Below, in pieces: positions 11,885 to 37,537 of a stretch of DNA of 64,000 nucleotides. Each line of letters begins with the position of its first letter. Within the stretch, counting starts at the first letter, position 1. The position numbers and the translations under genes were made by a program. The stretch spans positions 64,001-128,000 of the forward strand of contig JBFGLM010000003.1 in assembly GCA_041576165.1 (NCBI GenBank), written 5' to 3'. Source of the stretch: Acidimicrobiia bacterium (GTDB taxonomy: Bacteria; Actinomycetota; Acidimicrobiia; Spongiisociales; Spongiisociaceae). The notes beneath the pieces are model-generated. The model was given only the letters and a program-made list of their open reading frames with translations. It was not told the DNA's origin and made no database searches.

Positions 11885-13147
11885 GTGACGGCTGAGCTGA
11901 TCACCTCCAGCGCCCCGCGACCCCTGGCCAACTACAGCGAGGCATACCGGGTGGGCGACCTCGTTTTCGCTGCCGGCCAGCTGGCATCTGACTTCGTGAC
12001 GGGTGTGCCGCCCGAGGCCTCGACAAACAAGGCTTTTCCCTTCTACGGCTCGGAGATCAAGGCCCAAACCCGCTACATCCTCGACAACCTAGGCGCGACC
12101 TTCGAGGCCGCCGGATCTTCGCTCGAGAACATCGTGAAGGCGCAGGTGTTCATGACCGACATGCGCGACTTCAACGCGTTCGACGAGGTCTGGAAGGAGT
12201 ATTTCGGAGCCAACGTGCCGGCTCGGACCACCGTGGGCACCACCGAGCTGCTCGGGGCAGGGCCCGCCCAGCTCATCGAGATCGATCTGATCGGTCACAC
12301 GAACGACATCGAGGGTGAGGTGATCAGCTCGTCCGCTCCCAGTCCGCTTGCCAACTACACAGAGGCGATCCGGGTTGGAAATCTCGTATTTGCAGCCGGC
12401 CAGCTTGCGAACGACTTCGTCACCGGGGTCCCGGCTGAGGCGAAGGTACATCCGAACTTTCCGTACTACGGATCGGACATCAAACTGCAGACCCGCTACA
12501 TCCTCGACAATTTCATCAAGACGTTCGAAGCCGCCGACTCGTCGCTGGATAACGTGGTCAAAGCACAGGTGTTCATGATGGACATGGCGGACTTCAACGG
12601 ATTCGACGAGGTGTGGAGGGAGTACTTCGGCGACAATCCGCCGCCGCGGACCACCGTCGGGACGACCGAGCTGTTGGGCTCCGGCCCGGAGCAGCTGCTC
12701 GAGATCGACCTGATCGCGCACACCAACACCACCTCCAAACGGGTCGTTACCTCCGATGCCCCCCAACCGCTGGCCAACTATTCAGAAGCTGTCATCGTGG
12801 ACGGACTGGTGTTCGCAGCGGGTCAGCTGGCGTCGGACTTCGAGACAGGGGTCCCGCCCGGAGCTCGAGCCAATCCGGCCTTCCCGTTCTATGGCTCCAA
12901 CATCAAGGCGCAAGCCCGCTACATCCTGGACAACCTCAGGAAGACCTTCACGGCCGCCGGTGGTTCGTTGACCAGCGCTTTCAAAGCCCAGGTCTTCATG
13001 ACCGACCTGCGCGACTTCAACGCGTTCGACGAGGTCTGGAAGGAGTACTTCGGTGATCAGCTCCCGGCCCGAACCACGGTCGGTACCAGCGGTCTCCTGG
13101 TAAAGGACACGCTCGTGGAAGTAGATCTCATCGGCGCCGTCGACTGA
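11885..13147 (+). CDS. Triple-domain Rid (YjgF/YER057c/UK114) protein
   Basis: Three tandem units of about 141 aa, each with NY[ST]EA...VFAAGQ...F..FDEVW.EYF...P[AP]RTTVG...E[IV]DLI. Confidence 0.88.
   Translation: MTAELITSSAPRPLANYSEAYRVGDLVFAAGQLASDFVTGVPPEASTNKAFPFYGSEIKAQTRYILDNLGATFEAAGSSLENIVKAQVFMTDMRDFNAFDEVWKEYFGANVPARTTVGTTELLGAGPAQLIEIDLIGHTNDIEGEVISSSAPSPLANYTEAIRVGNLVFAAGQLANDFVTGVPAEAKVHPNFPYYGSDIKLQTRYILDNFIKTFEAADSSLDNVVKAQVFMMDMADFNGFDEVWREYFGDNPPPRTTVGTTELLGSGPEQLLEIDLIAHTNTTSKRVVTSDAPQPLANYSEAVIVDGLVFAAGQLASDFETGVPPGARANPAFPFYGSNIKAQARYILDNLRKTFTAAGGSLTSAFKAQVFMTDLRDFNAFDEVWKEYFGDQLPARTTVGTSGLLVKDTLVEVDLIGAVD
11885..13147 (+). repeat. Intragenic threefold tandem repeat with a 423-bp period
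   Basis: Homologous CAGGTxTTCATGA...TTCGACGAGGT blocks start at 12143, 12566 and 12989. Confidence 0.85.
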
Positions 13148-13186
13148 CGGTGCCAACGGAAATCAGCCGAGACAGAAGGGGCACGC

Positions 13187-14506
13187 ATGAGGAGGAAATG
13201 GCCGAGGTATGCGGTCGCGCTGTTGGTGTTCACCCTGGTGGCTGCCGCATGCGGCGACGGCGATGATGAAACGGCCGACACGGCCGCAGACGCAGGAACG
13301 GAAACGACCGCAGCCGGCGATACCGGAGCAGCGCCCAGCGGTGAGCCGATCAAGCTGGGCATGCTCATCGGCGTGACCGGCGACTACTCACCTTGGTACG
13401 ACCCGAGCAAAGCCGGCGCCGATGTAGCTATTGACGAGATCAACGCCGCCGGTGGCGTGCTCGGTCGTCCGGTCGAGCTCGTCGTGGTCGACAACCTGTC
13501 GACCCCAGAAGGCGCCGTTCAGGGCTTCAATCAGATCGTGGACGTCGAGGCGGTTGACGCCCTCGGCGGCGTGGAGTCAGACGGCGCGGTCGCCAACCTG
13601 CAAACGATCAAAGAGCTAGAACTGCCGACGATGTGTCCTGCATGCGGTACGTCGGAGCTCGACGAGGCCGGGGGCGATTACATCTTCCGCATCACCGGCT
13701 CCGACACGGATGGCGGCATCATCGCTGCGCAGTTCGCCCGCGACTCCGGGTTCACCAGCGTGGCGATGCTGGTACAGAACACCGAGGGCGCCTCGGCTCC
13801 GGCCGACGTCTTCAAAGAGGTGTTCCAGTCGACAGGTGGTGAGATAGTCGCGGACGTACGCTTCGATCCGGGCCAGGCGTCATACCAGGCGCAGGTGGAT
13901 CAAGCCTTCGCGGACGAACCCGATGCGGTATACCTGGGAGCAGGATTCGAAGCCGGTGGGATCATCCTGCAGGAGTGGCAACGGCGCGGTTACGGCGGGA
14001 ACTGGTTGTTTTCGCCCGACCTCATCGTCCCCGAGATCGCCAGCCTGGTGGATCAAGGCGTGGAGATCGGCGATGGCGTGGCCCGTGCTGCCATCCCGTC
14101 CTATGACACCAGCAGCAACGCGTACACCTCGTATGCGCCGCGTTATGAGGCGATAACAGGTGAGCCTCCCTCACCCGGCTTGTATGACGCCAACCAATAC
14201 GACCAGTACATCGTGCTGGCGCTGGCAATGGCCGCTGCCGGCTCCACTGACGGAGCTGCAGTCTCCGAACAGATACCGGCGATCCTGAATCCGCCCGGAA
14301 CGGTGGTTTACACCTACGCCGACGGTCTGGCGGCGCTGGAAGCCGGTGACGACATCGACTTCCACGGCGCGTCCTCGTCGCTGGACGTGAATCAGTTCGG
14401 CAATCTGTCCAGCCCGACCTTCGGCGAACAACAGATCATGGACGGCGAGTGGACCCAGGTCGGCGAGGTGACCCTGGATCCCGCTTTGAAGGAGGCGCTC
14501 AGCTAG
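13187..14506 (+). CDS. Liv-type ABC substrate-binding lipoprotein
   Basis: Lipobox AAAC, Thr/Ala linker and the motif AIDEINAAGGVLGRPVELV. Confidence 0.9.
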   Translation: MRRKWPRYAVALLVFTLVAAACGDGDDETADTAADAGTETTAAGDTGAAPSGEPIKLGMLIGVTGDYSPWYDPSKAGADVAIDEINAAGGVLGRPVELVVVDNLSTPEGAVQGFNQIVDVEAVDALGGVESDGAVANLQTIKELELPTMCPACGTSELDEAGGDYIFRITGSDTDGGIIAAQFARDSGFTSVAMLVQNTEGASAPADVFKEVFQSTGGEIVADVRFDPGQASYQAQVDQAFADEPDAVYLGAGFEAGGIILQEWQRRGYGGNWLFSPDLIVPEIASLVDQGVEIGDGVARAAIPSYDTSSNAYTSYAPRYEAITGEPPSPGLYDANQYDQYIVLALAMAAAGSTDGAAVSEQIPAILNPPGTVVYTYADGLAALEAGDDIDFHGASSSLDVNQFGNLSSPTFGEQQIMDGEWTQVGEVTLDPALKEALS

Positions 14507-14517
14507 TAGACGGCGGA

Positions 14518-14547
14518 CCCGGGGGGCGGTACCGCCCGCTTCCCGGG
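14518..14547 (+). terminator. GC-rich stem-loop after the SBP gene (mRNA-stabilising or attenuating)
   Basis: CCCGGG-GGGCGGTACCGCCC-GCTT-CCCGGG directly follows the SBP stop; no U-tract. Confidence 0.4.
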
Positions 14548-14567
14548 GCCCTCGACGCAGCTGTCAC

Positions 14568-15431
14568 ATGCAGAACATCATCTTCGGCCTCATCACGGGC
14601 AGCATCCTCGCGATTGCCACCGTCGGCTTCTCGATGATTCGCCAGACTGAGGGATTCATCAACATTGCCCACGGCCAGTTCCTGACACTTGGTGCGTTCA
14701 TGGGGTTCTTTTTCGTGTCCACCGTGGGGGTCAATGTGTTCTTGGCCGGGCTACTGGCGGCAATCGTCGTGGGGGTCTCAGGGGTGGTGATTTCGCGCAT
14801 TGTTTTCCGGCCGATCGCCCACTCGGGGCCGCTGGCGCAGCTGTTCACATCGATCGGCCTGGCGTTTCTCATGTTCGGCCTCATCCGAGTCGTGTTCGGT
14901 GCCAGCGTGAAGTTCTTCCCGACCAGCTTTGGGACCCGGTTCGATCTCGGTCCGGTCAACGTCACGGTGGGCGAGATACTCATCGTGGCGGTCGCCGGGG
15001 TGAGCGTGGCGGCGCTTGCCCTGTTCCTCACCCGCACCCGGTTGGGAACCTCGATACGAGCCACTGCCTCCAACCCGTCACTCGCAGAGGTGCGTGGCAT
15101 CCCGGTCGAACGGGTTTCGGCGGCGGTGTGGTTCATCGCGTCGGGCCTCGCCGGCCTGGCGGGCGTGATGGTCGGGTTGATCAGCAACGTCAATTCTGAG
15201 ATGGGTTTCCAGCAGATCCTCATAATCCTGGCCGCCGCGGTGTTGGGAGGGCTGGGCTCGATCTATGGAGTGCTCGCGGCGGGCCTGCTCCTGGGCCTGG
15301 CGATGGACCTGTCCGCCCTCGTCATCCCGACCGCCTATCGCTCCGTTGTCGCCTTCGGGCTCTTGATCGTGGTACTGGTGGTGCGCCCCCAGGGTCTGTT
15401 CGCGATCGCAGCCCGCAAGGAGGCCGCATGA
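14568..15431 (+). CDS. Branched-chain amino acid-type ABC permease (LivH-like)
   Basis: GFINIAHG, TRLGTSIRA and VLGGLGS motifs; hydrophobic. Confidence 0.9.
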   Translation: MQNIIFGLITGSILAIATVGFSMIRQTEGFINIAHGQFLTLGAFMGFFFVSTVGVNVFLAGLLAAIVVGVSGVVISRIVFRPIAHSGPLAQLFTSIGLAFLMFGLIRVVFGASVKFFPTSFGTRFDLGPVNVTVGEILIVAVAGVSVAALALFLTRTRLGTSIRATASNPSLAEVRGIPVERVSAAVWFIASGLAGLAGVMVGLISNVNSEMGFQQILIILAAAVLGGLGSIYGVLAAGLLLGLAMDLSALVIPTAYRSVVAFGLLIVVLVVRPQGLFAIAARKEAA

Positions 15432-16381
15432 CGGGGGTGTTCTTCTTCTTCGTTGGTGTGCTGACGCTGGCCGGCATATTCGCGGTATTCGCCATGATCC
15501 TGAACCTCGAGGCCGGATGGGCCGGCATGTGGGATCTGGGCATCGCCGGGTTGCTGGCCGTCGGCGGTTACACGTTCATCATCTTCACGCAAACCCAATC
15601 CGACGACGTGGCGTTCGCTCCCGGCCTGCCGATGTGGGTGGGAGTGATTCTGGGGAGCCTCGCCGGCGGCGTTGCGGCGCTGATCATCGGCGTCCCTTCG
15701 TTGCGTGTGCGCGGCGAGTACTTCTTGATAACCACGCTGGCGTTCGCCGAGGTGATCCGCCAGCTGGCGGTGAATCTCAGCTCCATCACCCGTGGCACCG
15801 TCGGGTTCAACCAGTTCGACCGGCCGTTTGAGTTTGTTGCTACCGGTCGCGGATACCGGGTGCTTCTCCTCGTTCTCGTATGGGTCGCAGCCGGACTCAT
15901 ATACCTGTTCATGCGCCGGTTGGTTCATGCTCCATACGGTCGTGTTCTGCGTGCGTTTCGCGACAACGATCCCGTGGCTCTCTCGCTCGGTAAGCACACC
16001 AACCGGCATCGGATTCAAACCTTCGTCCTGGCCGGTCTGCTGTACGGGGCGGCAGCACCGTTGTATCTATGGTTCTTGCGTATAGCGACGCCGTCGGTCT
16101 TCAGCGCGGAGGTGACCTTCGTGGCCTGGACGGCGCTCGTGATCGGCGGCATCGGGTCGAAAGCTGGACCGATCCTGGGAGCTGTCGTGCTCCTCGTTGT
16201 CACAGAAGTCGTTTCGCTGACACAGGGATCGGCCGAGCTGGCCGTACTACTCGCCTCGGCACGCTTCGTGGTGCTCGGCCTCGTTCTCATCCTGGTGATG
16301 CGCTACCGGCCCGCCGGGATCATCAGCGAGCAGAGGTCCCTTGCGGGGGCGTCACAACGCGTTGCGGAAACGGTGCCATGA
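15428..16381 (+). CDS. Branched-chain amino acid-type ABC permease (LivM-like)
   Basis: LRVRGEYFLITTLAF, PYGRVLRAFRD and IGGIGS motifs. Confidence 0.9.
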   Translation: MTGVFFFFVGVLTLAGIFAVFAMILNLEAGWAGMWDLGIAGLLAVGGYTFIIFTQTQSDDVAFAPGLPMWVGVILGSLAGGVAALIIGVPSLRVRGEYFLITTLAFAEVIRQLAVNLSSITRGTVGFNQFDRPFEFVATGRGYRVLLLVLVWVAAGLIYLFMRRLVHAPYGRVLRAFRDNDPVALSLGKHTNRHRIQTFVLAGLLYGAAAPLYLWFLRIATPSVFSAEVTFVAWTALVIGGIGSKAGPILGAVVLLVVTEVVSLTQGSAELAVLLASARFVVLGLVLILVMRYRPAGIISEQRSLAGASQRVAETVP

Positions 16382-17133
16382 GCATCCTCGACGTCCAGCA
16401 GGTAACCAAGCGGTTCGGGGGCGTTGTCGCAGTCAATCACGTGGATCTTGCGGTTGCAGAAGGCCAGATAGTGGCCGTCATCGGGCCCAATGGTGCCGGC
16501 AAGACGTCATTGTTCAACGTCGTGTCCGGGTTCGAGACCCCGGACGAAGGCACCGTCACTCTGGACGGCCGGCGCATCGACCGCCAACAACCCTGGCAGA
16601 TCGCCCGGCTTGGCTTGGTCCGGAGTTTTCAGACCCCCGTGGGGTTTCCGGAGCTGAGCGTGTGGGAGAACCTGATGGTGGCGGGGACGGTGCGTGACAC
16701 CGAGCCGGTGCTTTCGGCGCTGAGTGGACGGTGGCGGCGGTCCGAGACCGACGCCAACCGCCGGGCGCTGGATCTGCTCGAACGGCTTGCGTTGGAGAAT
16801 CACTTGGATACTCGTCTGGCTGATCTCACGCCGGGCGACATCAAGCTGGTCGATTTCGCCCGCCAGCTCATGATGCGACCGAGGATGATGTTGCTCGATG
16901 AACCGGCCAGCGGCGTCGATCCCGCCAGCATTGGCCGGTTGAGCGAGCTGATTGCAGACGTCCGGCGAGATGGAATCACGGTGCTGGTGATCGACCACAA
17001 CATCGGGTTCGTGTTGGGCGTCGCCGACCATGTTCACGTCATGGCGCTCGGCGAAGTGATCGCATCCGGTACGCCGGGCGAGATCGTGGCGGACCAGGCC
17101 GTGATCGAGATCTACCTCGGGAAGCGCGCCTGA
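16378..17133 (+). CDS. ABC ATP-binding protein (LivG-like)
   Basis: Walker A GPNGAGKT and Walker B LLDEP; ATG 16378 overlaps the upstream stop. Confidence 0.9.
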   Translation: MSILDVQQVTKRFGGVVAVNHVDLAVAEGQIVAVIGPNGAGKTSLFNVVSGFETPDEGTVTLDGRRIDRQQPWQIARLGLVRSFQTPVGFPELSVWENLMVAGTVRDTEPVLSALSGRWRRSETDANRRALDLLERLALENHLDTRLADLTPGDIKLVDFARQLMMRPRMMLLDEPASGVDPASIGRLSELIADVRRDGITVLVIDHNIGFVLGVADHVHVMALGEVIASGTPGEIVADQAVIEIYLGKRA

Positions 17134-17849
17134 TGCTGCTCGACGTCAAAGACCTGCGAACCGGGTACGGAACCCTGCCCGTCGTGCACGGGGTGTCCCT
17201 GTCGGTCGATCCGAATGAGGTCGTCGCGATCGTGGGGCCGAACGGGGCGGGCAAAACCTCGATAGTGAAGGCAATCATGGGCCAGCTGCCGCTGATGGGC
17301 GGCTCGGTCACGTTTGATGGCCGGGATCTCAGGCAGATTCGCCCGGCGGCGAGGCACCGGCTGGGTATGTCGACTGTTCCCCAGATCGGAAGCACATTTC
17401 CGGATCTCACCGTGGAGGACAATTTGCGGGTTTCGTTCTCGTCTCTGCCGCGTGACGAGATTGGCGGGGCCATCGAAGCGATCTATGAGATGTTCCCCGT
17501 CCTCAGCGAGCGACGCCGCCAGCTGGCGCGGACCCTGTCCGGCGGCGAACGGCAGATGCTGGCGTTTGGCTCCGGGGTCGGGACCCGCCCACGCTTCCTG
17601 GCGCTCGACGAGCCCACCACCGGGCTAGCCCCGACGATCATCGACAGTCTGGTTGAGAAGATCCTGGAGTACCGGCAGAGCGGCGCCTCCATACTGTGGG
17701 TCATCGAGGAAGAGCCGCTGTTGATTCTGCCCCACGTAGACCGGGTGTACGTCCTGAACTCGGGGGCCGTACAGGCGGAGATGCCGGCCCAAGAGCTCCT
17801 GGCAGACCGCTCGCTTCAATCGCTGTTCTTCGGCACGGAGACGATGTGA
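17133..17849 (+). CDS. ABC ATP-binding protein (LivF-like)
   Basis: GPNGAGKT, LSGGERQML and LDEP motifs. Confidence 0.9.
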   Translation: MLLDVKDLRTGYGTLPVVHGVSLSVDPNEVVAIVGPNGAGKTSIVKAIMGQLPLMGGSVTFDGRDLRQIRPAARHRLGMSTVPQIGSTFPDLTVEDNLRVSFSSLPRDEIGGAIEAIYEMFPVLSERRRQLARTLSGGERQMLAFGSGVGTRPRFLALDEPTTGLAPTIIDSLVEKILEYRQSGASILWVIEEEPLLILPHVDRVYVLNSGAVQAEMPAQELLADRSLQSLFFGTETM

Positions 17850-19130: not shown

Positions 19131-20657
19131 CTACGAGTCGATTTCGCGGCCCGCCATCGCCATTGCCAGTGAGTCCTCGCTGATGGACTCGGCCGGCCCG
19201 CTCAGCATGGCCCGTCCGCGATACATGACCACGATCCGATCGGCGAGTTTGAACAACTCCTCCAGGTCGAGCGACAGCAGGAGAATCGATCCGCCGCGAT
19301 CGCGCAGCCCCAACAGCCGGCGATGCACATAGTCGATCGCACCGACATCGAGGCCCCATGTTGGGTTGTCCGCCACGAGGATCGTGGGGTCGCGCGACAT
19401 CTCTCGAGCCAGCACCACCTTCTGCTGATTCCCTCCGGACAGGCTGCCCGCGGTGACGGTGGGGTCGGGTGGGCGCACGTCATACTGCTCGAGCAGGTCC
19501 GTCGCAGTCCGCCGCACCTCCGACCAGTTGATCATGCCGCGGCGCCGGAACCGGCCGGCCGCGAGGTCGCTGATCGTCACGTTCTCTGCCAGCGTCATGT
19601 CGAGTATCAAACCGAGGCCCTGGCGGTCCTCAGGGATGGCTCGCAGACCTGCCAGCCGGCGGTCAACCGGGCTCATCGCCGACACCTCCCGGCCGGAGAT
19701 CACGATTGTGCCGGCGTCCACTTCGCGAATTCCGAGTAAGGCGTCGACCAGTTCTCGCTGGCCGTTGCCTTCGACGCCGGCGATCCCCAGAATTTCACCG
19801 GCGCGTACTTCGAGGGCGAGACCATCGACGGCCACGCCATGCCCGTGGGCGGCGGCCACCACGAGACCGTCGATCTGCAAGACCGGTGGTGAGGAGTCGG
19901 CCTCGGTTTCGGCCCGGGGAGGTAGCGCCTCCCGCTCTCGCCCCGTCATCGCCCGCGCCAGGCTTCGCTCATCGAATTCACCCCGGCTCAGCGACGCCAC
20001 CCGCTCGCCGCGGCGCAGTACCGTCACCCGATCGGCCACCTCCATCACCTCGGCCAGCTTGTGAGTGACGAGGATGATCGAGTTACCCCGATCACGCAGC
20101 TGGGCCAGGATCGACAACAGGTTCTCGATCTGAGTCGGACCAAGCAGCGACGTTGGTTCGTCCATGATCAGAGTCTGCGCGCCCCGGAACATGGCTTTGA
20201 TGATCTCGACCCGCTGCTGGAGGTCGACGGGCAAATCCTCGACCGGTGTGGCCGGCTCGATCGGCATGCCCAGCTCCGTTGCCCGAGCCGCCACTTGCTC
20301 CTCGATGTCGGAGGCACGCAACCGGAAATCGGTGACACGACCGACACCCAACATCACGTTCTCGGCGACCGTGAAGGACGGCACGAGACTGAAGTGCTGA
20401 TGGACCATCCCGATTCCGCGATCAATTGCATCGTGAGGGGTGTTGATCGTGACCGTCTCGCCACCGATGGCGATGGTGCCGGCATCCTGGCGAATGTGTC
20501 CGAACAGGATGTTCATGAGCGTCGTTTTGCCTGCGCCGTTCTCACCCAGGAGGACGTGGATTTCGCCCGGCATGAGGTCGAAATCCACGTTGTGGTTCGC
20601 CACTGTGTCGCCAAAGCGCTTGTTGATACCCCTCATCCCGACGATGGCAGCGGTCAT
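19131..20657 (-). CDS. Nucleoside/sugar ABC ATP-binding protein (two ABC domains)
   Basis: GENGAGKT, GVEGNGQ and LSGGNQQK; start ATG 20657 overlaps the upstream TGA. Confidence 0.9.
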   Translation of the reverse strand: MTAAIVGMRGINKRFGDTVANHNVDFDLMPGEIHVLLGENGAGKTTLMNILFGHIRQDAGTIAIGGETVTINTPHDAIDRGIGMVHQHFSLVPSFTVAENVMLGVGRVTDFRLRASDIEEQVAARATELGMPIEPATPVEDLPVDLQQRVEIIKAMFRGAQTLIMDEPTSLLGPTQIENLLSILAQLRDRGNSIILVTHKLAEVMEVADRVTVLRRGERVASLSRGEFDERSLARAMTGREREALPPRAETEADSSPPVLQIDGLVVAAAHGHGVAVDGLALEVRAGEILGIAGVEGNGQRELVDALLGIREVDAGTIVISGREVSAMSPVDRRLAGLRAIPEDRQGLGLILDMTLAENVTISDLAAGRFRRRGMINWSEVRRTATDLLEQYDVRPPDPTVTAGSLSGGNQQKVVLAREMSRDPTILVADNPTWGLDVGAIDYVHRRLLGLRDRGGSILLLSLDLEELFKLADRIVVMYRGRAMLSGPAESISEDSLAMAMAGREIDS

Positions 20658-22963: not shown

Positions 22964-24337
22964 TCAGTCAGGGCAATAACCAATCAGATCGAGCAGCACC
23001 TTCGCGCCGGGCACCAGCAGCGGTCCGCCGATCTCCAGGGTTGTCGAGGCTGGCTTGTCACCGTCGAAATGAGCCGCCCACTCCTCGATGCTCTGCGCGA
23101 ACCACTGAAAATCGGCATGAAACGCCTGCCGCCGGCAGATCTGGTCGAGGCTGGTCCCGGCCGCCTCACAGATCTTGGCGACGTTGTCCAGCATGTAGCG
23201 CATCTGCAGCTTGGGCGGCTGTCCATACCACGGGAAGTTGGGATGGCGCTCTGTCGACTCTTCCAACGACCCTTTGTGGTTGAACGGCAGGGTGGTCGAG
23301 AAGAACAGGAACTTCCCGGCCTTGACCGCCTGCGGTTCGTGCCCCAACCCTGGGGGCGCCTTGGTTGTTTCGATGGTTTCGATCTCCAGGTCGGAGTCGC
23401 CGGCCAGCAACTTGAAGGCGATCTCGATCCGGCTGCCTTTCCCGCCGAGTCCCATGTAGGGGATCACTACCCGGGCCGGTGGGTTCTCCGGAAACCAGTG
23501 ACGCCACACCTTGTCCATGCCTTCGAAATCACGCGGGTGCCCCAGATAGACCGTGGCCTTCACGGCTCGATCGAGCGACGTGCCGGCGGCATCCGCGATC
23601 GCCGCCTGTTTCTTGAGCACGTAGTCGGTGTGCGTCTCGATGTCGGAGTGGTACCAGAACAGCGGGTTGCGGCGTGCCTCCAGGGCGATGCCGCTCGGCT
23701 CGCCGTAATACTCGGACCTACCGAAATCGCCTACCCAATCGACCGGGATCTCGCCCGCCAGGAAGACCCAGTCGCCGCGGCGGATCGCCGGGCTGTACCC
23801 CGCCAACGGTGACGGCGTCCCTTCGGGAACCTCATAGCCGATGCTCGGGCCGGGATGCACCTCCGGGTCCATCCCGATCATGTCCACCTCGAGGATCGTG
23901 TCTTTCACCAGCAGCCCGGTTTCCCGAATGCCCATCCCGGTTGACGCAGGGCGCGGCTCCTCGATGAACTCGTTGCGGGTCAAGAGGTAGGGCATGATGT
24001 CGATGCGGGGCCAGGTGTTGCCCTGATCGAACTCGTCCATCGTGGGATACGGAGACGTGAACCACTGGTAGATGCGAACGATATCGGAGCTGATGTCTAT
24101 ACCGGCGGCTTCCGCCGTCCTCTGCAAGTTCTGCAGGACGTAGCGGGACTGGATCTCCAGCTGGTTCTCCACATAGCGGTTGCGCCCATCGCCGCCTGCC
24201 TCGGGCGCCAGCCCGGTCTCGAAATCAGACGCGAGCTGGCCGGCAAAGAACACCCAACCTCCCGCCTTGATGGCTGGGCTATACGGCATCAACGGCTTCG
24301 GCTCATCTCCCCATACTGCGGTGCGGTCGCTCGCCAC
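22964..24337 (-). CDS. Triple-domain Rid-family protein (divergent domains)
   Basis: Three Rid-like units (YSPAIKAGGWVFFAGQ, YSPAIRRGDWVFLAGE, PQAVKAGKFLFFS); 457 aa. Confidence 0.8.
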   Translation of the reverse strand: MASDRTAVWGDEPKPLMPYSPAIKAGGWVFFAGQLASDFETGLAPEAGGDGRNRYVENQLEIQSRYVLQNLQRTAEAAGIDISSDIVRIYQWFTSPYPTMDEFDQGNTWPRIDIMPYLLTRNEFIEEPRPASTGMGIRETGLLVKDTILEVDMIGMDPEVHPGPSIGYEVPEGTPSPLAGYSPAIRRGDWVFLAGEIPVDWVGDFGRSEYYGEPSGIALEARRNPLFWYHSDIETHTDYVLKKQAAIADAAGTSLDRAVKATVYLGHPRDFEGMDKVWRHWFPENPPARVVIPYMGLGGKGSRIEIAFKLLAGDSDLEIETIETTKAPPGLGHEPQAVKAGKFLFFSTTLPFNHKGSLEESTERHPNFPWYGQPPKLQMRYMLDNVAKICEAAGTSLDQICRRQAFHADFQWFAQSIEEWAAHFDGDKPASTTLEIGGPLLVPGAKVLLDLIGYCPD

Positions 24338-24365: not shown

Positions 24366-25169
24366 TCAGACCGAAGCCGCGTCGAGCAGCCCTGTCGCCT
24401 CGGTGATCTCGGTTATGCCGCGCAGGTCGTCGGGCAGCTCCATTCCCCTACGGGCGTAGTACTCGGCGAGAAGCGCCGGGGCGTCGACTACCAGGCCGAG
24501 GTGGAGCGAGATGACTTGAAGCGCCGCGTTCTCCGCGATCTCGGAGTAGCCGGCGACAATGTCGCGCGGCACGATGACCCGGAAGTCCAGGTTGGCCGCG
24601 TCGAACGCCGTCGACAGAACGCAGGCGTCGGTGTAGGTGCCGGTCAGGATGACGTTGTGAACATCGAGGTTCCGTAGCAAGAATTCCAGGTCGGTCGGGT
24701 AGAAAGCCGATAGCCGCTTCTTGGTCCGGATGTAGTAGTCGCCCTCGATCTCCTCGGTCATCAGGTCGAGCCATTTCGTGCCCTCCCACGAGTGCTCGTC
24801 CATCAGCTCGTTGTCCTCGATATAGAGGTAATAGAGCACCCGCCAGTTGGCCATGCGGTTGTGTTTGCGGTTGTTCAGATCGTCAATACCGCCGTAGCGC
24901 TGCCAGTGCTGAACGTGAATCACGGGCATGCCGAGGTTGCGGCACTCGGCATGGAAGCGATCGTGGGCGGGGATACGGGCGCGGGCGCGTGGTGCCGGAA
25001 GCGTCAACCGCTCGTCGGGACCGACATGGCCCCGGTGCATGTCGATCTCGACCACCGCAGTCTTGTCGGGGTCGAGCCAGGTTTCGAACGCGTCGTCGTA
25101 GTCAGGGACGCCGCTCGGGAGGACCAGCTTGCGCCCGTCCTCCATGTAGCAGTACAGCTCGGTTTGCAT
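24366..25169 (-). CDS. Isochorismatase-family cysteine hydrolase
   Basis: Triad motifs VEIDMH, TKKRLSAF and GTYTDACVLST. Confidence 0.88.
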   Translation of the reverse strand: MQTELYCYMEDGRKLVLPSGVPDYDDAFETWLDPDKTAVVEIDMHRGHVGPDERLTLPAPRARARIPAHDRFHAECRNLGMPVIHVQHWQRYGGIDDLNNRKHNRMANWRVLYYLYIEDNELMDEHSWEGTKWLDLMTEEIEGDYYIRTKKRLSAFYPTDLEFLLRNLDVHNVILTGTYTDACVLSTAFDAANLDFRVIVPRDIVAGYSEIAENAALQVISLHLGLVVDAPALLAEYYARRGMELPDDLRGITEITEATGLLDAASV

Positions 25170-29424: not shown

Positions 29425-29441
29425 TGGACGACCCTCCTCGC

Positions 29442-29527
29442 CGGGCGATTGCCCCCGGACGCTACCAGTTATCATTGACCAGAGTGAAGAAGCATGCAGT
29501 GTCATTGAAGTCCGCGGGCGATTGCCC
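29442..29527. promoter_or_regulatory. Duplicated 13-bp quasi-palindrome in a divergent promoter
   Basis: CGGGCGATTGCCC occurs at 29442-29454 and 29515-29527. Confidence 0.45.
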
Positions 29528-29557
29528 AGCGGCGTGTCGGTCCATGGAGCTCGCTCG

Positions 29558-29971
29558 ATGAGCGGAGGACCCGGCTACGAGCCGGTCATTCCGTCCCGGG
29601 CGCGGATCCTCCCCGACGACGACACGTGTCCAGAACTCCCGATCGTGGTCGAAAGCGGTAGAGCATGGGCCGTGGCCTGGCCAGGCTCGGGCGCTCACCT
29701 CCGTTCCATGCATCGCATCTCGCTGCCGGCCTCGGCTTCGACCGTCCCGCTCCGGCACCCGATGGAATCGGTCTACTACGTCATGGCGGGCGCGGCGGTG
29801 GCGCATGACCTCGATCTGCAGCAAGAACATCCGCTCACTCTCGGTTCGATGATCTTGATCGATCCGGGAACGCGTTACGAACTGGTGGCAGGTGATGAAG
29901 GGGCCGAGCTCGTCGGCGGACCTTGTCCACCCGACCCGGGCATGTACACACATTTGGGAGAGGGTCACTGA
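29558..29971 (+). CDS. Cupin-domain protein
   Basis: Cupin-like strands LRHPMESVYYVMAG and ELVGGPCPPD. Confidence 0.7.
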   Translation: MSGGPGYEPVIPSRARILPDDDTCPELPIVVESGRAWAVAWPGSGAHLRSMHRISLPASASTVPLRHPMESVYYVMAGAAVAHDLDLQQEHPLTLGSMILIDPGTRYELVAGDEGAELVGGPCPPDPGMYTHLGEGH

Positions 29972-30372
29972 TGGCCATACACGTGCTGCACAAGGATGAA
30001 CCGGATCTCATGATGCCCATGAGTGCGGCGGACGCCCGCCTCATCGTGTGGGCGGGCCGCGGGTCGCAGACCGCCAACATGAACTACGTGGACATGCAGC
30101 CCGGTGAGCGGAACATCCCGCATACCCATAAGGGCTCGGAGGACACGCTGTATGTGATCGAGGGCCGCGGCACCATGGAGGATCTCAGTAACGGCCTCGA
30201 ACTTGCATTCGAGGCGCCGTGCGCAGTGCACGTGCCGGTCGGCCTGTGGCACGCCGTCAAGGCGGACCGGGGCAGCAACATCGAGAGTGTTGGCGGACCT
30301 TCGCCGGCCGACTGGAACATGCTGGTGCGGGTCGGCGGCTACCAACGGCTCACGATCGGGGACTCGCCGTGA
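29971..30372 (+). CDS. Cupin-domain protein (metal-binding)
   Basis: PHTHKGSEDTLYVIEG...VPVGLWH motif; TGATG coupling with the upstream gene. Confidence 0.8.
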   Translation: MAIHVLHKDEPDLMMPMSAADARLIVWAGRGSQTANMNYVDMQPGERNIPHTHKGSEDTLYVIEGRGTMEDLSNGLELAFEAPCAVHVPVGLWHAVKADRGSNIESVGGPSPADWNMLVRVGGYQRLTIGDSP

Positions 30373-31223
30373 GACATGAGATCACCATCGGACTCGCTCA
30401 GATCAGCGCTGAGCCTTACGAAGTCGAGGCAAACCGCAAGCTATGCGCGGACACCATCAGGGACGCCTTCGGACAAGGGGCCGACCTCGTGGTCCTGCCC
30501 GAGCTGATCATTCCCGGCTATGTAGCCGACGCCGCCCGGCTGTTTCCCATCGCCGAGCCGGTCGGTGGTGAAACGGTCCGCGAATGGACCGACCTGGCAG
30601 CCGAGGCCGGCGGCTACGTTGTCGGGGGCCTGGCCGAACGCGCCGGCGAGTCTCTGTACAACACCGCAGTTGCGGTCGGCCCGCAAGGACTGATCGGGCA
30701 TTACCGCAAAACCCACCTGTTCGCCGATGAGAAGGTGGCCTTCGCACCCGGCGATATGGGGTTCCCGGTGGTGCGGACCCGATTTGGGACCATCGGAATC
30801 TGCGTCTGCTACGACCTGAGGTTCGTGGAAGTCGTGCGGTTGATGGCTCTGCAGGGAGCCGACCTGATTTGTGTCCCGACCGCCTGGCTCCCCGGCTATG
30901 ACCAGCAGCGGTGGGACGCCGACGGCATGTCGCCCCAGGGTCGAGGCGCTGAACTCCAAGCCAATCTCAACCAGGTATTCATAGCCTGCGCCTCCCAGGC
31001 CGGCATCCACGGGCAATGCGACTTCCTTGGTTCGTCGATCCTCATCGACCCGTTCGGAAAGCGGCTGGTGGGCCCGCTGTCCGGCTCGGACGACGAAGTG
31101 GTGCTGGCCACGGTGGACATTGCCGATGCCAAGCGCTCCCAGGTACGGGGGGAGATGATCTCTCCGAGAGCGGACCGCCGCACGGACATCTACCAGATCG
31201 CAGTCGACGAGCAGCTGCTCTAA
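30369..31223 (+). CDS. Carbon-nitrogen hydrolase (nitrilase/amidase family)
   Basis: Catalytic E-K-C in LPE, YRKTHL and VCYD; GTG start at 30369. Confidence 0.9.
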   Translation: MRHEITIGLAQISAEPYEVEANRKLCADTIRDAFGQGADLVVLPELIIPGYVADAARLFPIAEPVGGETVREWTDLAAEAGGYVVGGLAERAGESLYNTAVAVGPQGLIGHYRKTHLFADEKVAFAPGDMGFPVVRTRFGTIGICVCYDLRFVEVVRLMALQGADLICVPTAWLPGYDQQRWDADGMSPQGRGAELQANLNQVFIACASQAGIHGQCDFLGSSILIDPFGKRLVGPLSGSDDEVVLATVDIADAKRSQVRGEMISPRADRRTDIYQIAVDEQLL

Positions 31224-31318
31224 TTCGTACGTCCACTCTGCCGTAGGCGAGGTGTCGCCGCGCTCGCTGGGCCGACCACCTAGCTTTGGCGGAGAGGTGG
31301 GACAGGAGGAGGCCGAGC

Positions 31319-31924
31319 ATGACCACCCCGGAGCAGCCCTTCTACCGGCGACGAGGATTCGTCATCGGCGCGATCGTCGTAGCGATTCCCGTGATCGCGG
31401 TCGGCTGGTACCTGTTGTCGCCCCTTTTCATCAACCGCACGGTCGAAGAAGAGTTTCCACGGGCGGCAATGGCGGCCGTACCGGCCGACATGACGGCAGA
31501 ACAGGTGGAACAGGAGATGATCGACGCCGAGGGGGACAATGTCGAGTCCACCGAGGATATGCCCGAGGCCGATCCCGTAGCGATCGTGACCGGAACCATC
31601 ATGGGAGCCGACTCGTTCCACCGTGGCTCCGGCACGGCCACCATCTACGAACTGGCTGATGGCTCGCGCATCCTCCGGCTCGAGGATCTCGATGTGACCA
31701 ACGGCCCGGATCTGCACGTCTTGCTCTCGCCGGTTGCAGCTCCCGAGAGCCGAGAGCAGGTAACGGCTGAGGGTTATGTCGACCTGGGAGGTTTGAAGGG
31801 CAATCGCGGGTCACAGAACTACGACATACCGGTGGATTTCGAGATCGGCGGAGAGCTAAGCGTGGTCATCTACTGCCAGCCTTTCCACGTCATATTCTCG
31901 ACCGCGACGCTCGACCCTGCCTGA
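31319..31924 (+). CDS. Membrane-anchored DM13-domain protein
   Basis: N-terminal TM segment; HRGSGTA, NGPDLHVLL, LGGLKGNRGSQNY and VIYC motifs. Confidence 0.85.
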   Translation: MTTPEQPFYRRRGFVIGAIVVAIPVIAVGWYLLSPLFINRTVEEEFPRAAMAAVPADMTAEQVEQEMIDAEGDNVESTEDMPEADPVAIVTGTIMGADSFHRGSGTATIYELADGSRILRLEDLDVTNGPDLHVLLSPVAAPESREQVTAEGYVDLGGLKGNRGSQNYDIPVDFEIGGELSVVIYCQPFHVIFSTATLDPA

Positions 31925-31957
31925 CGGCGGCAATTCTTCGTCGCTAGGGTCTCCCGA

Positions 31958-32134
31958 ATGCCGCGCCGATTGCGCTTCGCCGTCGTGGTCTTCGTCGTGA
32001 CCCTGATCGTCAACGTCGCGGTGCAAGCTGTGTGGCCGGACGGCGAAGTCGACTGGAGTGCGGCGATCGTGATCAGCCTCGTCACCGCCCTCGCCATATC
32101 GGTCATCGAGCAGCGACCTCGCCGCCGTGATTGA
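31958..32134 (+). CDS. Small two-TM membrane protein (58 aa)
   Basis: Manual translation MPRRLRFAVVVFVVTLIVNVAVQAVWPDGEVDWSAAIVISLVTALAISVIEQRPRRRD; below the ORF-track length cutoff. Confidence 0.5.
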   Translation: MPRRLRFAVVVFVVTLIVNVAVQAVWPDGEVDWSAAIVISLVTALAISVIEQRPRRRD

Positions 32135-32244
32135 AACCAGCCTCGATAACGGCGAGCTCGACCGCCGTGATGGCGCGGTCCACTGGTAGCGCATCGAGCG
32201 CGGCACTCCTAGAGTCTCACTCAATCGAGTTTTGGGAGGACTCA

Positions 32245-33081
32245 ATGCAGATGGTTGACCTGTCGCACACCATGAACATCCACACTCCGGGATGGGTCGG
32301 CTATGCGGGCAACAAGATGTATTACGCCCAGACCCTGCAGACCAACCGCATCGTCGCCCAGCGGATCGAAAGCTCCCTCCATGCTGGCACCCACCTGGAC
32401 GGGCCGATGCATTCGGTCGATGGTGGAGGTGACATGGCCTCTCTTGCGTTGGAATTCCTGATCAACAAGGGCGCCATTGTCGACATCAGCGACCAGGTTG
32501 ACGACTGGGACATCATCACTCCCCAGATGCTCGAAGACGCCCCGGTCGAAATCGAGCAGGGCGACATCCTCATCATCCATACGGGCTATCACAAGTACTG
32601 GGAGGGCGAAGAGCAGCAGGACCTGGTGCGCTACTTCACGATGCACCCGGGCGGGACTCGCGAGCTGGCCGACTGGATGATCGAACGAGAGATCAAGTGG
32701 TTCGGGATCGACGCAGGTTCGGGCGACCACCCGATGAACACAACCATCCGGAACATGCGTCCCGATCTCCGGGAACAGTTCGAGGAACAGGTCGGCATGA
32801 CGTGCGAGGAGTTCTTCCCACCGTACGAATACACCCATCACCTGAGCGGACGCGTTGTGAAGAATGACATGTTCCCGTTCCACAACTATGCGATGCAGTT
32901 CGGACTGATTCACTCCGAAAACGTGGGCGGCGATATCGACAAGGTTCTCAATCGCCGAGCCCTGATCGGGGCATTCCCTTGGAAGTACGAAGGTCTCGAG
33001 TCGTGCCCGTGCCGCGTGATCGCGTTCCTGGACACGGATACGAACGTGGAGGAGTTCACCGGCGAGGCGATGGGCCACTGA
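32245..33081 (+). CDS. Cyclase-family (kynurenine formamidase-like) metal hydrolase
   Basis: HAGTHLDGPMH motif, GDILIIHTG and HSENV; GGAGGA RBS before ATG 32245. Confidence 0.88.
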   Translation: MQMVDLSHTMNIHTPGWVGYAGNKMYYAQTLQTNRIVAQRIESSLHAGTHLDGPMHSVDGGGDMASLALEFLINKGAIVDISDQVDDWDIITPQMLEDAPVEIEQGDILIIHTGYHKYWEGEEQQDLVRYFTMHPGGTRELADWMIEREIKWFGIDAGSGDHPMNTTIRNMRPDLREQFEEQVGMTCEEFFPPYEYTHHLSGRVVKNDMFPFHNYAMQFGLIHSENVGGDIDKVLNRRALIGAFPWKYEGLESCPCRVIAFLDTDTNVEEFTGEAMGH

Positions 33082-33128
33082 ACCCGAGATTCAACGCCGG
33101 CGATCGGCGCGAACACCGCCGCGGCATC

Positions 33129-35334: not shown

Positions 35335-36171
35335 GTGATTGCGGTGAACCAACCCCTCGAAGTGCCCCAGACGCGAGGTTTGAGCTCCGAAGCGAGCATC
35401 GACGTTGCGTTCGTCACTCGCGGGCCGATCCCAGTATCGGCGCGGCGACACGCCGAGCGCATTCTCGCCTCGCTCGGAGCCAAGGCACCGCGCCCGATCA
35501 TCTATGCCCGGTTCAAGCTCCGGGTCGAGCCCAGCCGACCCCCGGACGAACAAGCGCTCGTACAGGCGACGATCGACGTGAGCGGGAGCCGAATCCGGGC
35601 ACACGTGGCCAGCCGAAACGTCGAGGAGGCCCTCGATCTACTGGACGAGCGATTGCGCCGGAGGCTCCGACGCCTCACTGAGCGCCGCCAGGACAACGCC
35701 ACCCGTCCGTTCCAGACACCGCCGGGAGTGTGGCGTCACGGCGACCTGCCGACGAGGCGTCCCGCATACTTTCATCGCGATCCCCAGGACCGCGAGATCA
35801 TACGCCGCAAGGCATACGCGCCCCGAGCAGTTTCGCTGGAAGAGGCTCTGTTCGACCTCGACGTGCTCGACCACCGGTTCTTCCTGTTCACAGACCAGGA
35901 CAGCGGGGAAGACTCGATCGTCTACGAGACCGACGACACGGTGGTGGTCCAGCACGTGTCGGGCGGCGTGCCCGAACCGGACCGGGTGCACGCATTGTCG
36001 GTTGCGGTGAATACGGCCCAGGCCCCGTCGATGTCGGAGGCCGACGCCATTGAGCGGCTCGATACTTCCGATGAACCGTTTCTATTCTTCCGCGACCGGG
36101 GGACGGACCGGGGAAAGGTCCTTTACCGCAGGTACGACGGCCACTATGGGCTGATCGAACCGGCAGACTGA
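35335..36171 (+). CDS. Ribosome hibernation-related protein (HPF/S30AE with C-terminal domains, Rv0079-like)
   Basis: IRAHVAS..EEALDLLDERLRRRL, WRHGD and the terminal VLYRRYDGHYGLI motif. Confidence 0.8.
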   Translation: MIAVNQPLEVPQTRGLSSEASIDVAFVTRGPIPVSARRHAERILASLGAKAPRPIIYARFKLRVEPSRPPDEQALVQATIDVSGSRIRAHVASRNVEEALDLLDERLRRRLRRLTERRQDNATRPFQTPPGVWRHGDLPTRRPAYFHRDPQDREIIRRKAYAPRAVSLEEALFDLDVLDHRFFLFTDQDSGEDSIVYETDDTVVVQHVSGGVPEPDRVHALSVAVNTAQAPSMSEADAIERLDTSDEPFLFFRDRGTDRGKVLYRRYDGHYGLIEPAD

Positions 36172-36211
36172 TCCCCCCGGGGGGCGGACGCCCGATATCC
36201 GGCTCCAGGTC

Positions 36212-37537
36212 TCAGGCTGAATGGTCCCGGTGGGCGATCAGGTCGATTTCGATCAGTAGCTCCGGCATCATGATGCCGCCGTCGCCCGACGCCTGATTGG
36301 AAGGAATCAGGTTGAGGGTGGGCCAATGACCCACCGGTTCCCATACCTGCCGCCAGGCACGTTCGAAGCCGCGGTAGTCGCGCTGAGCCCAACACAGAAA
36401 CACCCGCGCGTCAACGACATTGCGTAGGTCGAGATCGTTGGCCTCCAGTTGGTGCTTGAGGAGATCCATCGTTCCGCGGACCTGGATCTCGATATCCGAC
36501 CAATAGTGCGGCAAACCCTTCGGCGCTTGGGTGAACCCGAAGTTCTCGTAGTCAGGGCACGACACTTGACCGGCCATGAAGAACCACCGCCCGACCTCGA
36601 TACCCGGAGTGAAATGGACCTTGCGGATGTCTTCGGGATGCCACGCGATGCCCTTGCGGGATTCGACCTTTTGATGCTGGTCGTCAGGTGCAATGAACTG
36701 TGCGTTCGCAATGAAGATCGCGCCGGGCACCAGCAGGTCCGGCATCGCCATCGAGGCACGAGTGGGCGGCGACGTTCCGGCCTGGTGGCCCATGTATTGG
36801 TCCCAGACTCCGTCGAGATCATGGAAGTTGGCGAGGTCGATCTCGAAGGCATGGGTCTTCACGCACTGGGTGAGGTCACTCCCGGCAGCCTCCAGCACCT
36901 TCCCCCAATTGTCGAACATGTATCGAGCCTGGAGCTCGGTGTCGGACGCGTAGTAGGGCGCCACCGGGTTGGTAGTGACCGGGATGCCCGTCTCGAAATC
37001 GGTCGCTGGGTAACCGGACATGAAGACGAACGGTGCTGCCTTGACGGCCTGTGGACACCACTCGGCGTCCATCGGGTCGGGCACCGCGTCAATGTTGATC
37101 ACCGCCCGCCTGTCAGCCGCGTCCCGGTGCAGCGCCACGGCGACGAGGCTCAAACGAACGCCGGGAATGATGTGATCGTCACCGCAGACCGCAGTCAGCC
37201 GGGCAGGAGGCGCGTCGGGGAAGGCCTCTTTCCACGCCAGCTTGAACTCGTAGAAGTCTGATGCATCTACGAGATACACCTCAGCCTTGAGCGTGAGCGC
37301 GAGTGAGCTACCGGCCTCTTCGAGGATTTCCGCCAGGGCCACACAGACGGCCTTCGTTTGCGCCGCCACCTCCGACTGGCCGATGTGTGGTGAGATCGAG
37401 TCGCTATGCACGACGGCACCGTCGGCGTCGATCGGGTAGAGCGTGGACACGTAGACGAGATCGTCCTGACGGGACCAGCGGGGTGCGGGTAGTACGTTCA
37501 TGGGCAGCGGCACCGGCAACCTCCCTTTCACCTGCAA
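36212..37537 (-). CDS. Triple-domain Rid-family protein (third paralog)
   Basis: Three Rid-like units (APPARLTAV; AVKAAPFVFMSG...PPTRASM; GRWFFMAGQ...LIEIDLIA). The start is uncertain (TTG 37537 or ATG 37501). Confidence 0.78.
   Translation of the reverse strand: MQVKGRLPVPLPMNVLPAPRWSRQDDLVYVSTLYPIDADGAVVHSDSISPHIGQSEVAAQTKAVCVALAEILEEAGSSLALTLKAEVYLVDASDFYEFKLAWKEAFPDAPPARLTAVCGDDHIIPGVRLSLVAVALHRDAADRRAVINIDAVPDPMDAEWCPQAVKAAPFVFMSGYPATDFETGIPVTTNPVAPYYASDTELQARYMFDNWGKVLEAAGSDLTQCVKTHAFEIDLANFHDLDGVWDQYMGHQAGTSPPTRASMAMPDLLVPGAIFIANAQFIAPDDQHQKVESRKGIAWHPEDIRKVHFTPGIEVGRWFFMAGQVSCPDYENFGFTQAPKGLPHYWSDIEIQVRGTMDLLKHQLEANDLDLRNVVDARVFLCWAQRDYRGFERAWRQVWEPVGHWPTLNLIPSNQASGDGGIMMPELLIEIDLIAHRDHSA

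Follow-up and report, generated by a model that had tools for sequence, protein, structure and literature searches.

Single-chain triple-Rid proteins of three families in an Acidimicrobiia genome fragment, two of them with conserved asymmetry of the active-site motifs

The 64,000-nucleotide stretch of Acidimicrobiia DNA analysed here (the window; assembly GCA_041576165.1, contig JBFGLM010000003.1, positions 64,001 to 128,000 of the forward strand, numbered below from its first letter) encodes three proteins, A, B and C, each composed of three fused Rid domains. By sequence all three are members of the Rid / YjgF / L-PSP superfamily (PF01042), and comparison with their relatives indicates that they are three distinct, widespread families and not recent copies of each other. 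The active-site motif is intact in every domain of A, and in B and C it is broken in an asymmetric manner that, judged from the family alignments, is a conserved, position-specific family trait and not decay. Rid proteins are ubiquitous and most of their subfamilies are without a known substrate; the fused form was, to our knowledge, noted in 2015 and then left aside. The finding overturns nothing known, and its interest is of two kinds: the fused B and C families offer a way to ask what covalent linkage of an oligomer lets evolution do, and the reproducible partner set of B is a testable entry to a physiological Rid substrate.

Domain organisation and motif residues

11885..13147, forward strand: type A triple-Rid gene, 420 amino acids (aa), GTG start; domains D1 11885-12307, D2 12308-12730, D3 12731-13144
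22964..24337, reverse strand: type B triple-Rid gene, 457 aa, GTG start; D1 23858-24337, D2 23402-23857, D3 22967-23401
36212..37537, reverse strand: type C triple-Rid gene, 441 aa as an open reading frame (ORF), TTG start; D1 37112-37537, D2 36677-37111, D3 36215-36676

An earlier, sequence-only reading of the window had proposed these three genes with nine Rid domains in total, which is borne out by the ORFs and by a scan with PF01042: each protein matches in three separate stretches (A, E 6.6e-76, 252.5 bits; B, 7.4e-38, 129.7 bits; C, 8.8e-31, 106.9 bits; gathering score 27.3 bits, applied to the whole protein) and all nine domains match. A hidden Markov model (HMM) of the nine domains, run against the six-frame translation of the 64-kb window, returned just these nine at E<=1 and no further Rid domain. 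The GC content at third codon positions (A 0.81, B 0.83, C 0.78) is typical of window genes. Most homologues of C have 433-439 aa and span 96-98% of the query, and residues 1-7 of the C model have a predicted local distance difference test score (pLDDT) below 50; the true start of C is therefore probably 8-12 codons downstream, either at a GTG (37513) or at an ATG (37501).

The positions equivalent to Tyr17, Arg105 and Glu120 of TdcF were read by per-domain HMM alignment, and the Arg column from the nine-domain alignment as well. This column reads PARt, PPRt and PARt in A, PASt, PARv and PASt (Ser/Arg/Ser) in B, and PARl, PTRa and PTLn (Arg/Arg/Leu) in C, and the Arg counts of the earlier reading, 3/3, 1/3 and 2/3 respectively, are exact. 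The triad is Y-R-E in D1, D2 and D3 of A; it is Y-S-E, Y-R-E and H-S-L in the successive domains of B (Glu position Glu/Glu/Leu) and P-R-S, W-R-I and F-L-E in those of C (Ser/Ile/Glu). A complete Tyr/Arg/Glu set is found in 3/3 domains of A, in 1/3 of B (D2) and in 0/3 of C. The A repeats are 61-74% identical to each other, and the domains of B and C 14-30%.

Three families and their conservation

Relatives were counted at E<=1e-10 in a length-limited search, which makes the figures lower bounds: at least 1651 for A, at least 892 for B and at least 196 for C. The best 120 relatives of each are mostly full length, the full-length homologues (414-463 aa) number in the hundreds and come from many sources, and their database names, where given, are almost always RidA, enamine deaminase or reactive-intermediate deaminase. 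In family A (43 sequences), Arg114, Arg255 and Arg396 and Glu132, Glu273 and Glu412 are invariant. In family B (42 sequences from several phyla, 61-86% identical to the query, mean column identity 70%), Pro130-Ala-Ser132-Thr, Pro287-Ala-Arg289 and Pro429-x-Ser431-Thr-Thr are invariant, as are the polar residues at cleft positions. In the 48 sequences of family C (44-88% identity to the query), Arg113 is kept by at least 90% and Arg260 by all, and D3 is without Arg. The proposal of the earlier reading that fusion lets the three sites diverge gains support from the conservation of Ser132, Arg289 and Ser431 in B and of Arg113 and Arg260 in C, and from the 86/88 distant relatives, described below, that lack at least one Arg; A is symmetric.

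A tree was built from 129 domains of 13 A, 13 B and 17 C proteins. Within it B1, B2, B3, C1, C2 and C3 each form one clade, with values of 99-100 in the Shimodaira-Hasegawa-like approximate likelihood-ratio test (SH-aLRT), and, given these six single-position clades, the B and C fusions should each be older than the spread of their family. The A domains all group in a single clade (SH-aLRT 98), inside which domain position does not define separate lineages (3-4 changes each), a pattern that suggests gene conversion or homogenisation of the A repeats, or repeated triplication. The A-type repeats of the window and of the homologues P0245-P0349 group by sub-lineage and not by position; some domains, for example D1 of the A-type homologues P0304 and P0337, sit among domain-2 sequences.

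The term paralogous, used in the earlier reading, is apt only at the level of the domains. A single fused ancestor of A, B and C is neither shown nor excluded, the deep branching of the B and C domains being left unsettled by the approximately unbiased (AU) test. A pairing of B3 with C2 in a quick tree (SH-aLRT 93) was withdrawn: the tree constrained to B3+C3 is 3.8 log-likelihood units better, and the AU test keeps B3+C3 (p 0.578).

Among the C-type homologues, many paralogues per genome are seen (for example P0131, P0138, P0147, P0151 and P0160; P0163-P0177). Five separate 90% clusters share one value for the longest contig (3,408,909). Ten of these homologues belong to one Dehalococcoidia metagenome-assembled genome (MAG) and include the consecutive locus tags 10505, 10510 and 10515; one is named from Candidatus Methylomirabilis.

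The wider B-like superfamily

In a full HMMER search of 1.84 billion representatives with B, 2286 proteins matched at E<=0.001; of these, 436 reached E<=1e-10 and 126, standing for as many clusters at 50% identity, reached E<=1e-30. The best 150 of the 2286 matches contained 148 new identifiers, 91 of them 395-500 aa long, and within these 91 three Rid domains were found in 88, two in 2 and four in 1. The Arg patterns of the 88 three-domain proteins, a sample biased to B-like proteins through the choice of B as query, were as follows (order D1 D2 D3; R, residue kept in that domain; x, lost; per-domain HMM alignment):

xRx: 55
xxx: 24
RRx: 3
RRR: 2
RxR: 2
Rxx: 1
xRR: 1

At least one Arg is missing in 86/88, Ser occupies the D1 Arg position in 62/88 and the Glu of D2 is kept in 78/88. 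As far as the aligned motifs show, asymmetry is the rule within this B-biased sample.

Predicted fold and the inserted loop

AlphaFold2 models made with the family alignments are compact single chains for both B (mean pLDDT 93.4, predicted template modelling score (pTM) 0.93) and C (mean pLDDT 92.5, pTM 0.91). When both models were compared with the PDB by Foldseek, single-domain Rid chains matched one third of the model with a template modelling score TMt of 0.80-0.90, and the sole solved chains aligning over the whole length were the chorismatases 4bps, 5a3k and 5ag3 (387-418 columns, 411-418 for B; TMt 0.54-0.63; identity 11-13%), which are also the top matches of C. By sequence no triple-Rid chain is found in the PDB, the longest solved match being 165 residues or less. 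Chorismatases are reportedly monomers with a pseudo-threefold, Rid-like symmetry and a differentiated active site. Both models have the chorismate-mutase-like fold arranged as a (pseudo)trimer, in prediction only, and there is good support from them that B and C fold as intramolecular pseudo-trimers resembling the Rid homotrimer; the single-chain pseudo-trimer put forward by the earlier reading is supported for B and C by the pTM values together with the whole-length superposition on chorismatases. In such a pseudo-trimer, three inter-domain clefts are predicted to replace the three identical inter-subunit sites.

The earlier reading had also pointed to an inserted loop in most domains, and this is borne out: in alignment with solved single-domain RidA proteins, a gap of 11 residues opens between strand beta3 and helix alpha1. 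The core P-x-[FYWH]-[YW] is present in 7/9 domains and DFxTG in 5/9. The Pro/aromatic core is invariant or nearly so inside each of the three families, and a search of the PDB with the insert alone gave no solved chain with shared sequence. The accessible portion of the AmnE paper describes Lp2 (residues 38-60) as an unusually long beta3-alpha1 loop that enters the cleft of the opposite trimer and is required for hexamer formation. By analogy, the insert of the window proteins may be a cleft cap or a dimerisation element; a two-copy complex prediction of A, as a possible dimer of pseudo-trimers held by the insert, weighs neither way (score 0.00, mark 0.42).

Genes around A, B and C

Upstream and downstream of A
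5793..11748, forward strand: molybdenum (Mo)-hydroxylase operon (xanthine dehydrogenase / CO dehydrogenase family) with FAD, large, 2Fe-2S and second large subunits
13187..17849, forward strand: Liv-type ATP-binding cassette (ABC) transporter with substrate-binding protein (SBP), two permeases and two ATPases
3088..4911, reverse strand: CocE/NonD-family (S15) hydrolase, 18 kb from B

The B operon
26454-27383 and 27373-28443, reverse strand: two ABC permeases, part of an importer set (Pfam PF02608/PF02653), upstream of B
25185-26372, reverse strand: BMP/PnrA-type SBP of the same importer set, upstream of B
24366..25169, reverse strand: isochorismatase-family cysteine amidohydrolase (PF00857), directly upstream of B in the same operon
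20654-22939, reverse strand: Mo-hydroxylase large subunit (PF02738/PF20256/PF01315), directly downstream of B
19131 to about 20651, reverse strand: double ABC ATPase (two PF00005 domains), downstream of B

Upstream of C
37631-39298, reverse strand: PPDK_N-domain protein, resembling phosphoenolpyruvate (PEP) synthase
39371-40609, reverse strand: M24 creatinase/DddP-like hydrolase

The Mo-hydroxylase operon ends 136 bp before A and the Liv-type transporter starts 39 bp after it. In transcription order, the B operon consists of a Rieske/VanA-type oxygenase, the two permeases, the BMP/PnrA-type SBP, the isochorismatase-family hydrolase, B itself, the Mo-hydroxylase large subunit and the double ABC ATPase. 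A and B share a block whose synteny is kept in the nearest relatives. C, downstream of the PPDK_N-domain protein, the M24 hydrolase and an HMGL-like protein, belongs to another operon, and two genes, for a PfkB kinase and a ribosome hibernation factor, stand between it and that block. The single catabolic island of the earlier reading is accordingly a loose description.

When 19 neighbours were compared with NCBIfam, none of the matches listed reached a curated cut-off, and hence no pathway can be named. The ABC ATPase and SBP show a weak likeness to 'putative B6 ABC transporter' models, and the isochorismatase-like neighbour to a biuret hydrolase model; the latter protein also aligns remotely, but over its full length, with biuret hydrolase, RutB (8bkd, E 1.2e-8) and N-carbamoylsarcosine amidase, with E values of about 1e-8.

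Several further features of the region were recorded. It holds three Mo-hydroxylase large subunits and one FAD and one 2Fe-2S subunit (5793-11748 and 20654-22939), and the large subunits may share electron-transfer subunits; their best partial NCBIfam matches are glyceraldehyde dehydrogenase and CO dehydrogenase models, none of those listed being at the curated cut-off. The stretch at 28444-33081 combines the Rieske/VanA-type oxygenase with a nitrilase-related CN-hydrolase and a cyclase-family protein, and looks like a separate uncharacterised catabolic module; the same combination, with a cyclase of 63.5% identity and without a Rid gene, occurs on a Rhodococcus ruber plasmid (locus L081, 8130-12828). 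Between the B and C regions, the 278-aa ORF at 35335-36171 (forward strand) has two stretches of PF16321, the C-terminal domain of ribosome hibernation factors, in an unusual layout in which an N-terminal S30AE domain is not listed at E<=1e-5. An allantoinase/hydantoinase-like amidohydrolase at 43065-44996 (reverse strand) carries an N-terminal extension of ~195 residues for which there is no family match, and its homologues (49-51% identity) occur near B-type genes in four Thermoleophilia-type loci.

Neighbourhoods of B in other genomes

GTDB species genomes were scanned with the B alignment, 80 loci were kept and the window proteins were compared with them by tblastn. The nearest loci (B at 83-86% identity) are almost all from Acidimicrobiia MAGs. 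Fifty-six loci were treated as Actinomycetota-type, namely 52 titled as Actinomycetota lineages (Candidatus Poriferisocius being counted as Acidimicrobiia) and L001, L002, L069 and L070, titled 'bacterium'; the 24 others comprise 21 titled as Proteobacteria, one Halieaceae MAG, one titled as Acidobacteriota with Acidimicrobiia-like synteny and one titled as Verrucomicrobiales. Since many loci come from closely related MAGs, the following counts within 10 kb of B are not independent and reflect about five distinct gene orders, and just 53/80 loci extend at least 9 kb on both sides.

Isochorismatase homologue (>=55% identity): Actinomycetota-type 48/56 (30 within 300 bp), others 2/24
BMP-type SBP: Actinomycetota-type 51/56, others 1/24
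Any Mo-hydroxylase large subunit: Actinomycetota-type 38/56, others 0/24
CN-hydrolase: Actinomycetota-type 35/56, others 1/24
CocE/NonD hydrolase: Actinomycetota-type 6/56, others 10/24

A homologue of the 20654-22939 Mo-hydroxylase subunit lies within 300 bp of B in 32/56 Actinomycetota-type loci and in 0/24 others. The CocE/NonD hydrolase homologues (63-79% identity), near B in 16/80 loci, span Actinomycetota and Proteobacteria (L004, L011, L012, L015, L018, L025, L037-L040, L044, L047, L048, L055, L056 and L059). An A-type gene is found within 10 kb of B in 1/80 loci and a C-type gene in 0/80; in locus L007, an A-type gene (75% identity) adjoins a homologue of the Liv-type SBP of the window.

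Pfam annotation covered 67 neighbour ORFs in 10 loci that are not Actinomycetota-type (nine titled as Proteobacteria and the Halieaceae MAG). Four of the ten combine TetR, a CUT2-type ABC transporter and B, with a CocE/NonD hydrolase after B in two of the four; three have a short-chain dehydrogenase/reductase (SDR) directly upstream of B and, close by, genes for a TonB-dependent receptor and/or an MFS_2 transporter; one has M24, zinc alcohol dehydrogenase and PPDK_N/PEP-utilizers genes upstream of B and CocE/NonD and amidohydrolase genes downstream; and two are of mixed context. An M24 and PPDK_N/PEP-utilizers pair resembling that beside C of the window stands next to the B-type gene of a gammaproteobacterial MAG (L055, 6265-9844).

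B is thus consistently found in transporter-linked, catabolic-looking operons and is not tied specifically to ring hydroxylation or cleavage. The link to ring cleavage suggested by the earlier reading is lineage-specific, with a Mo-hydroxylase large subunit near B in 38/56 Actinomycetota-type loci and in 0/24 others, and the linkage to catabolic genes on which that reading had staked itself holds in the weak sense of such operons and without a specific tie to ring cleavage.

In a plasmid collection searched by tblastn, B and C had no match and A had one weak match, to two adjacent single RidA genes of Sinorhizobium meliloti (29.8% identity). For the isochorismatase-like and cyclase neighbours, homologues were found on plasmids of Pantoea, Klebsiella, Rhizobium and Rhodococcus ruber. 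Two of these plasmid regions were inspected; they contain CN-hydrolase, cyclase, Rieske and isochorismatase modules, and neither a Rid gene nor a characterised pathway was seen in them. A literature search for clusters of RidA with isochorismatase and xanthine-dehydrogenase-family genes found no paper.

Function and alternative explanations

The reading favoured here, with a little more belief than doubt, is that A, B and C are intramolecular pseudo-trimers, that A is a RidA-type deaminase and that B carries out a RutC-like step after an amidohydrolase. Given the intact triad in all three domains, an ordinary RidA-type activity is expected of A, which is most likely a covalently linked enamine/imine deaminase with three equivalent sites, probably expressed together with the adjacent Liv-type importer and Mo-hydroxylase genes. 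B and C would be old fusions in which the carboxylate-binding Arg has been left in D2 (B) or in D1 and D2 (C) and the remaining clefts have been remodelled, with Ser or hydrophobic residues and conserved extra loops. According to the accessible portion of the TdcF paper, Arg105 binds the carboxylate of the ligand and Glu120 reaches the ligand and residue 107 from the far side of the subunit interface, and with this geometry a cleft receives its Arg from one domain and its Glu from another. B would then have one complete Arg and Glu cleft, if the Glu partner of each Arg lies in the preceding domain, and C would have one under either handedness. The Arg is essential for imine hydrolysis, and Rid subfamilies without it presumably act otherwise (Niehaus et al. 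2015, BMC Genomics 16:382, in its accessible text, as for all statements from this source below); by this published criterion at most one cleft of B and at most two of C should be RidA-like, which would give C one or two carboxylate-binding clefts.

In Actinomycetota, by analogy, the transporter-linked operon would serve a nitrogenous compound, and B would act after its isochorismatase-like cysteine amidohydrolase. The imported compound would be opened or deacylated by the amidohydrolase to an unstable enamine or imine acid, which the Arg-bearing cleft of B would turn into an oxo acid and ammonia. This RutB-then-RutC logic is modelled on the alignment of the neighbour with cysteine amidohydrolases of ureido and carbamoyl amides, taken together with its pairing with a Rid protein, and an imine/enamine deaminase role of this kind is plausible for B.

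A number of observations weigh against this reading. None of A, B and C reaches the RutC equivalog cut-off, and C falls below that of TIGR00004. The neighbourhood of B is not universal, the isochorismatase homologue being near B in only 2 of the 24 loci outside the Actinomycetota-type set and the Mo-hydroxylase in 0, and the non-actinobacterial neighbours include sugar-type ABC transporters, SDRs, CocE/NonD hydrolases and MFS_2 transporters. No Arg at all is left in 24/88 B-like representatives, and the commonest of the 88 patterns has Arg and Glu in D2 alone, which would place them in different clefts, since the two act from different subunits. The B-like superfamily may therefore have left RidA chemistry.

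The main alternative is that B and C are not imine deaminases, and that one cleft has been rebuilt for another carboxylate chemistry (hydrolysis, elimination, decarboxylation or isomerisation, with a chorismatase-like precedent) while the remaining clefts are structural. This explanation, which we regard as possible but on the unlikely side, draws on the chorismatases as the best whole-length structural matches of both proteins, on the full Tyr/Arg/Glu set in just 1/3 domains of B and 0/3 of C, on the distant relatives noted above that have no Arg (24/88) and on the wide variation of neighbours across phyla; furthermore, the invariance of the Ser at the Arg position and of the family-specific inserts points to selection for something other than a RidA site. 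However, the identity to chorismatases is just 11-13%, the chorismatase family models of Pfam and NCBIfam are unmatched at E<=0.01, and D2 of B has the full RidA triad with an invariant Arg289. Moreover, Ser stands at the Arg position in ~10% of RidA proteins (Niehaus et al. 2015), so that Ser need not mean new chemistry.

It is improbable that the asymmetric proteins are non-catalytic, acting in binding, buffering or a chaperone-like manner so as to sequester a reactive or toxic pathway intermediate or to help a partner enzyme. Members of the Rid family have been assigned roles as chaperones and further non-enzymatic functions (Niehaus et al. 2015) and the catalytic Arg is gone from most clefts, but the 70% mean column identity over 42 B sequences with invariant polar cleft residues, and the fixed place of the gene between enzymes in catabolic operons, are more typical of an enzyme. 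The notion that the triple genes are artefacts, in which assembly or frame errors have joined three neighbouring single-domain Rid genes, has virtually nothing in its favour and is refuted by the uninterrupted reading frames, the hundreds of independent full-length homologues of 414-463 aa, the collinear matches in 80 genomic loci and the confident whole-chain structure predictions.

In a further and more speculative proposal, which seems rather doubtful at present, B and C would be members of a large and uncharacterised superfamily (at least 126 clusters at 50% identity), its enzymes being single Rid-fold chains with a permanent asymmetry and with one cleft rebuilt for non-imine chemistry. 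In Actinomycetota, B and the amidohydrolase would then serve an undescribed pathway for an imported N-heterocyclic or ureido compound. Were this true, the superfamily would be a second, much broader case of chorismatase-type cleft rebuilding after covalent fusion.

Comparison with known systems

The fused architecture and its trimer interpretation are already known, and in databases the proteins already carry a RidA-family annotation. What is modestly new is that B and C are asymmetric in a strict, family-wide manner, that the B-like superfamily is of this size, that B has a conserved partner set and that the repeats of A are homogenised; as far as the literature searches reach, there is no published analysis of the asymmetric fused families. 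The fused form is no new idea: the chorismatases are solved examples of the same architecture, and 3x-RidA proteins, with EF_0115 of Enterococcus faecalis as an example, were named and read as 'presumably covalently linked trimer units' by Niehaus et al. 2015 (BMC Genomics 16:382), the only description of triple Rid proteins found in the literature search; supplementary table 1 of that paper counts 3x-RidA per genome, the 45 archaeal rows considered here being all zero.

Like 3x-RidA, A, B and C have three tandem PF01042 domains in one chain, but the definition, three RidA-type domains, strictly fits A alone, the domains that are RidA-like at all three motif positions numbering one in B and none in C. 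Unlike 3x-RidA as described in the accessible text of Niehaus et al. 2015, in which site divergence is not analysed, B and C show a conserved, position-specific loss of Arg and Glu, and most of the nine window domains carry the 11-residue beta3-alpha1 insert. The resemblance to the chorismatases FkbO and Hyg5 (4bps, 5a3k, 5ag3) lies in the whole-length alignment of the B and C models, architecture alone being common. These enzymes, at 331-335 aa, are ~100 residues shorter and 11-13% identical, whereas the window proteins match PF01042 in all domains, and no chorismatase (FkbO/Hyg5/XanB2) model is among their Pfam and NCBIfam matches at E<=0.01; their context is also catabolic, as against secondary-metabolite or ubiquinone biosynthesis.

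With the RutB/RutC pair, B shares the adjoining isochorismatase-family amidohydrolase, which can be aligned with RutB over its full length, and among the NCBIfam models RutC ranks second for each of A, B and C. The scores against this equivalog (TIGR03610; A 153.6, B 78.4, C 54.8 bits) remain under its cut-off of 169.1 bits, RutC is a single-domain homotrimer, and no RutA-, RutD- or RutF-like gene is among the 54 window ORFs scanned with Pfam. AmnE/AmnD (2-aminomuconate deaminase, 6izh), which matches D1 of A at E 4.7e-12, is likewise a Rid deaminase, of a ring-cleavage pathway, and has its long loop at the same place as the window insert, but has a single domain and assembles into a hexamer, its two trimers being joined by that loop.

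Against the RidA model TIGR00004 (cut-off 106.25 bits), A scores 250.4, B 126.2, which passes the cut-off only when its three stretches are added up, and C 83.4. Unlike RidA and TdcF, the window proteins are covalently fused and carry the 11-residue insert, and most clefts of B and C are without Arg and/or Glu; like them, they have the Rid domain fold, in the models of B and C with TMt 0.80-0.90, and A keeps the equivalents of Tyr17, Arg105 and Glu120 in every domain.

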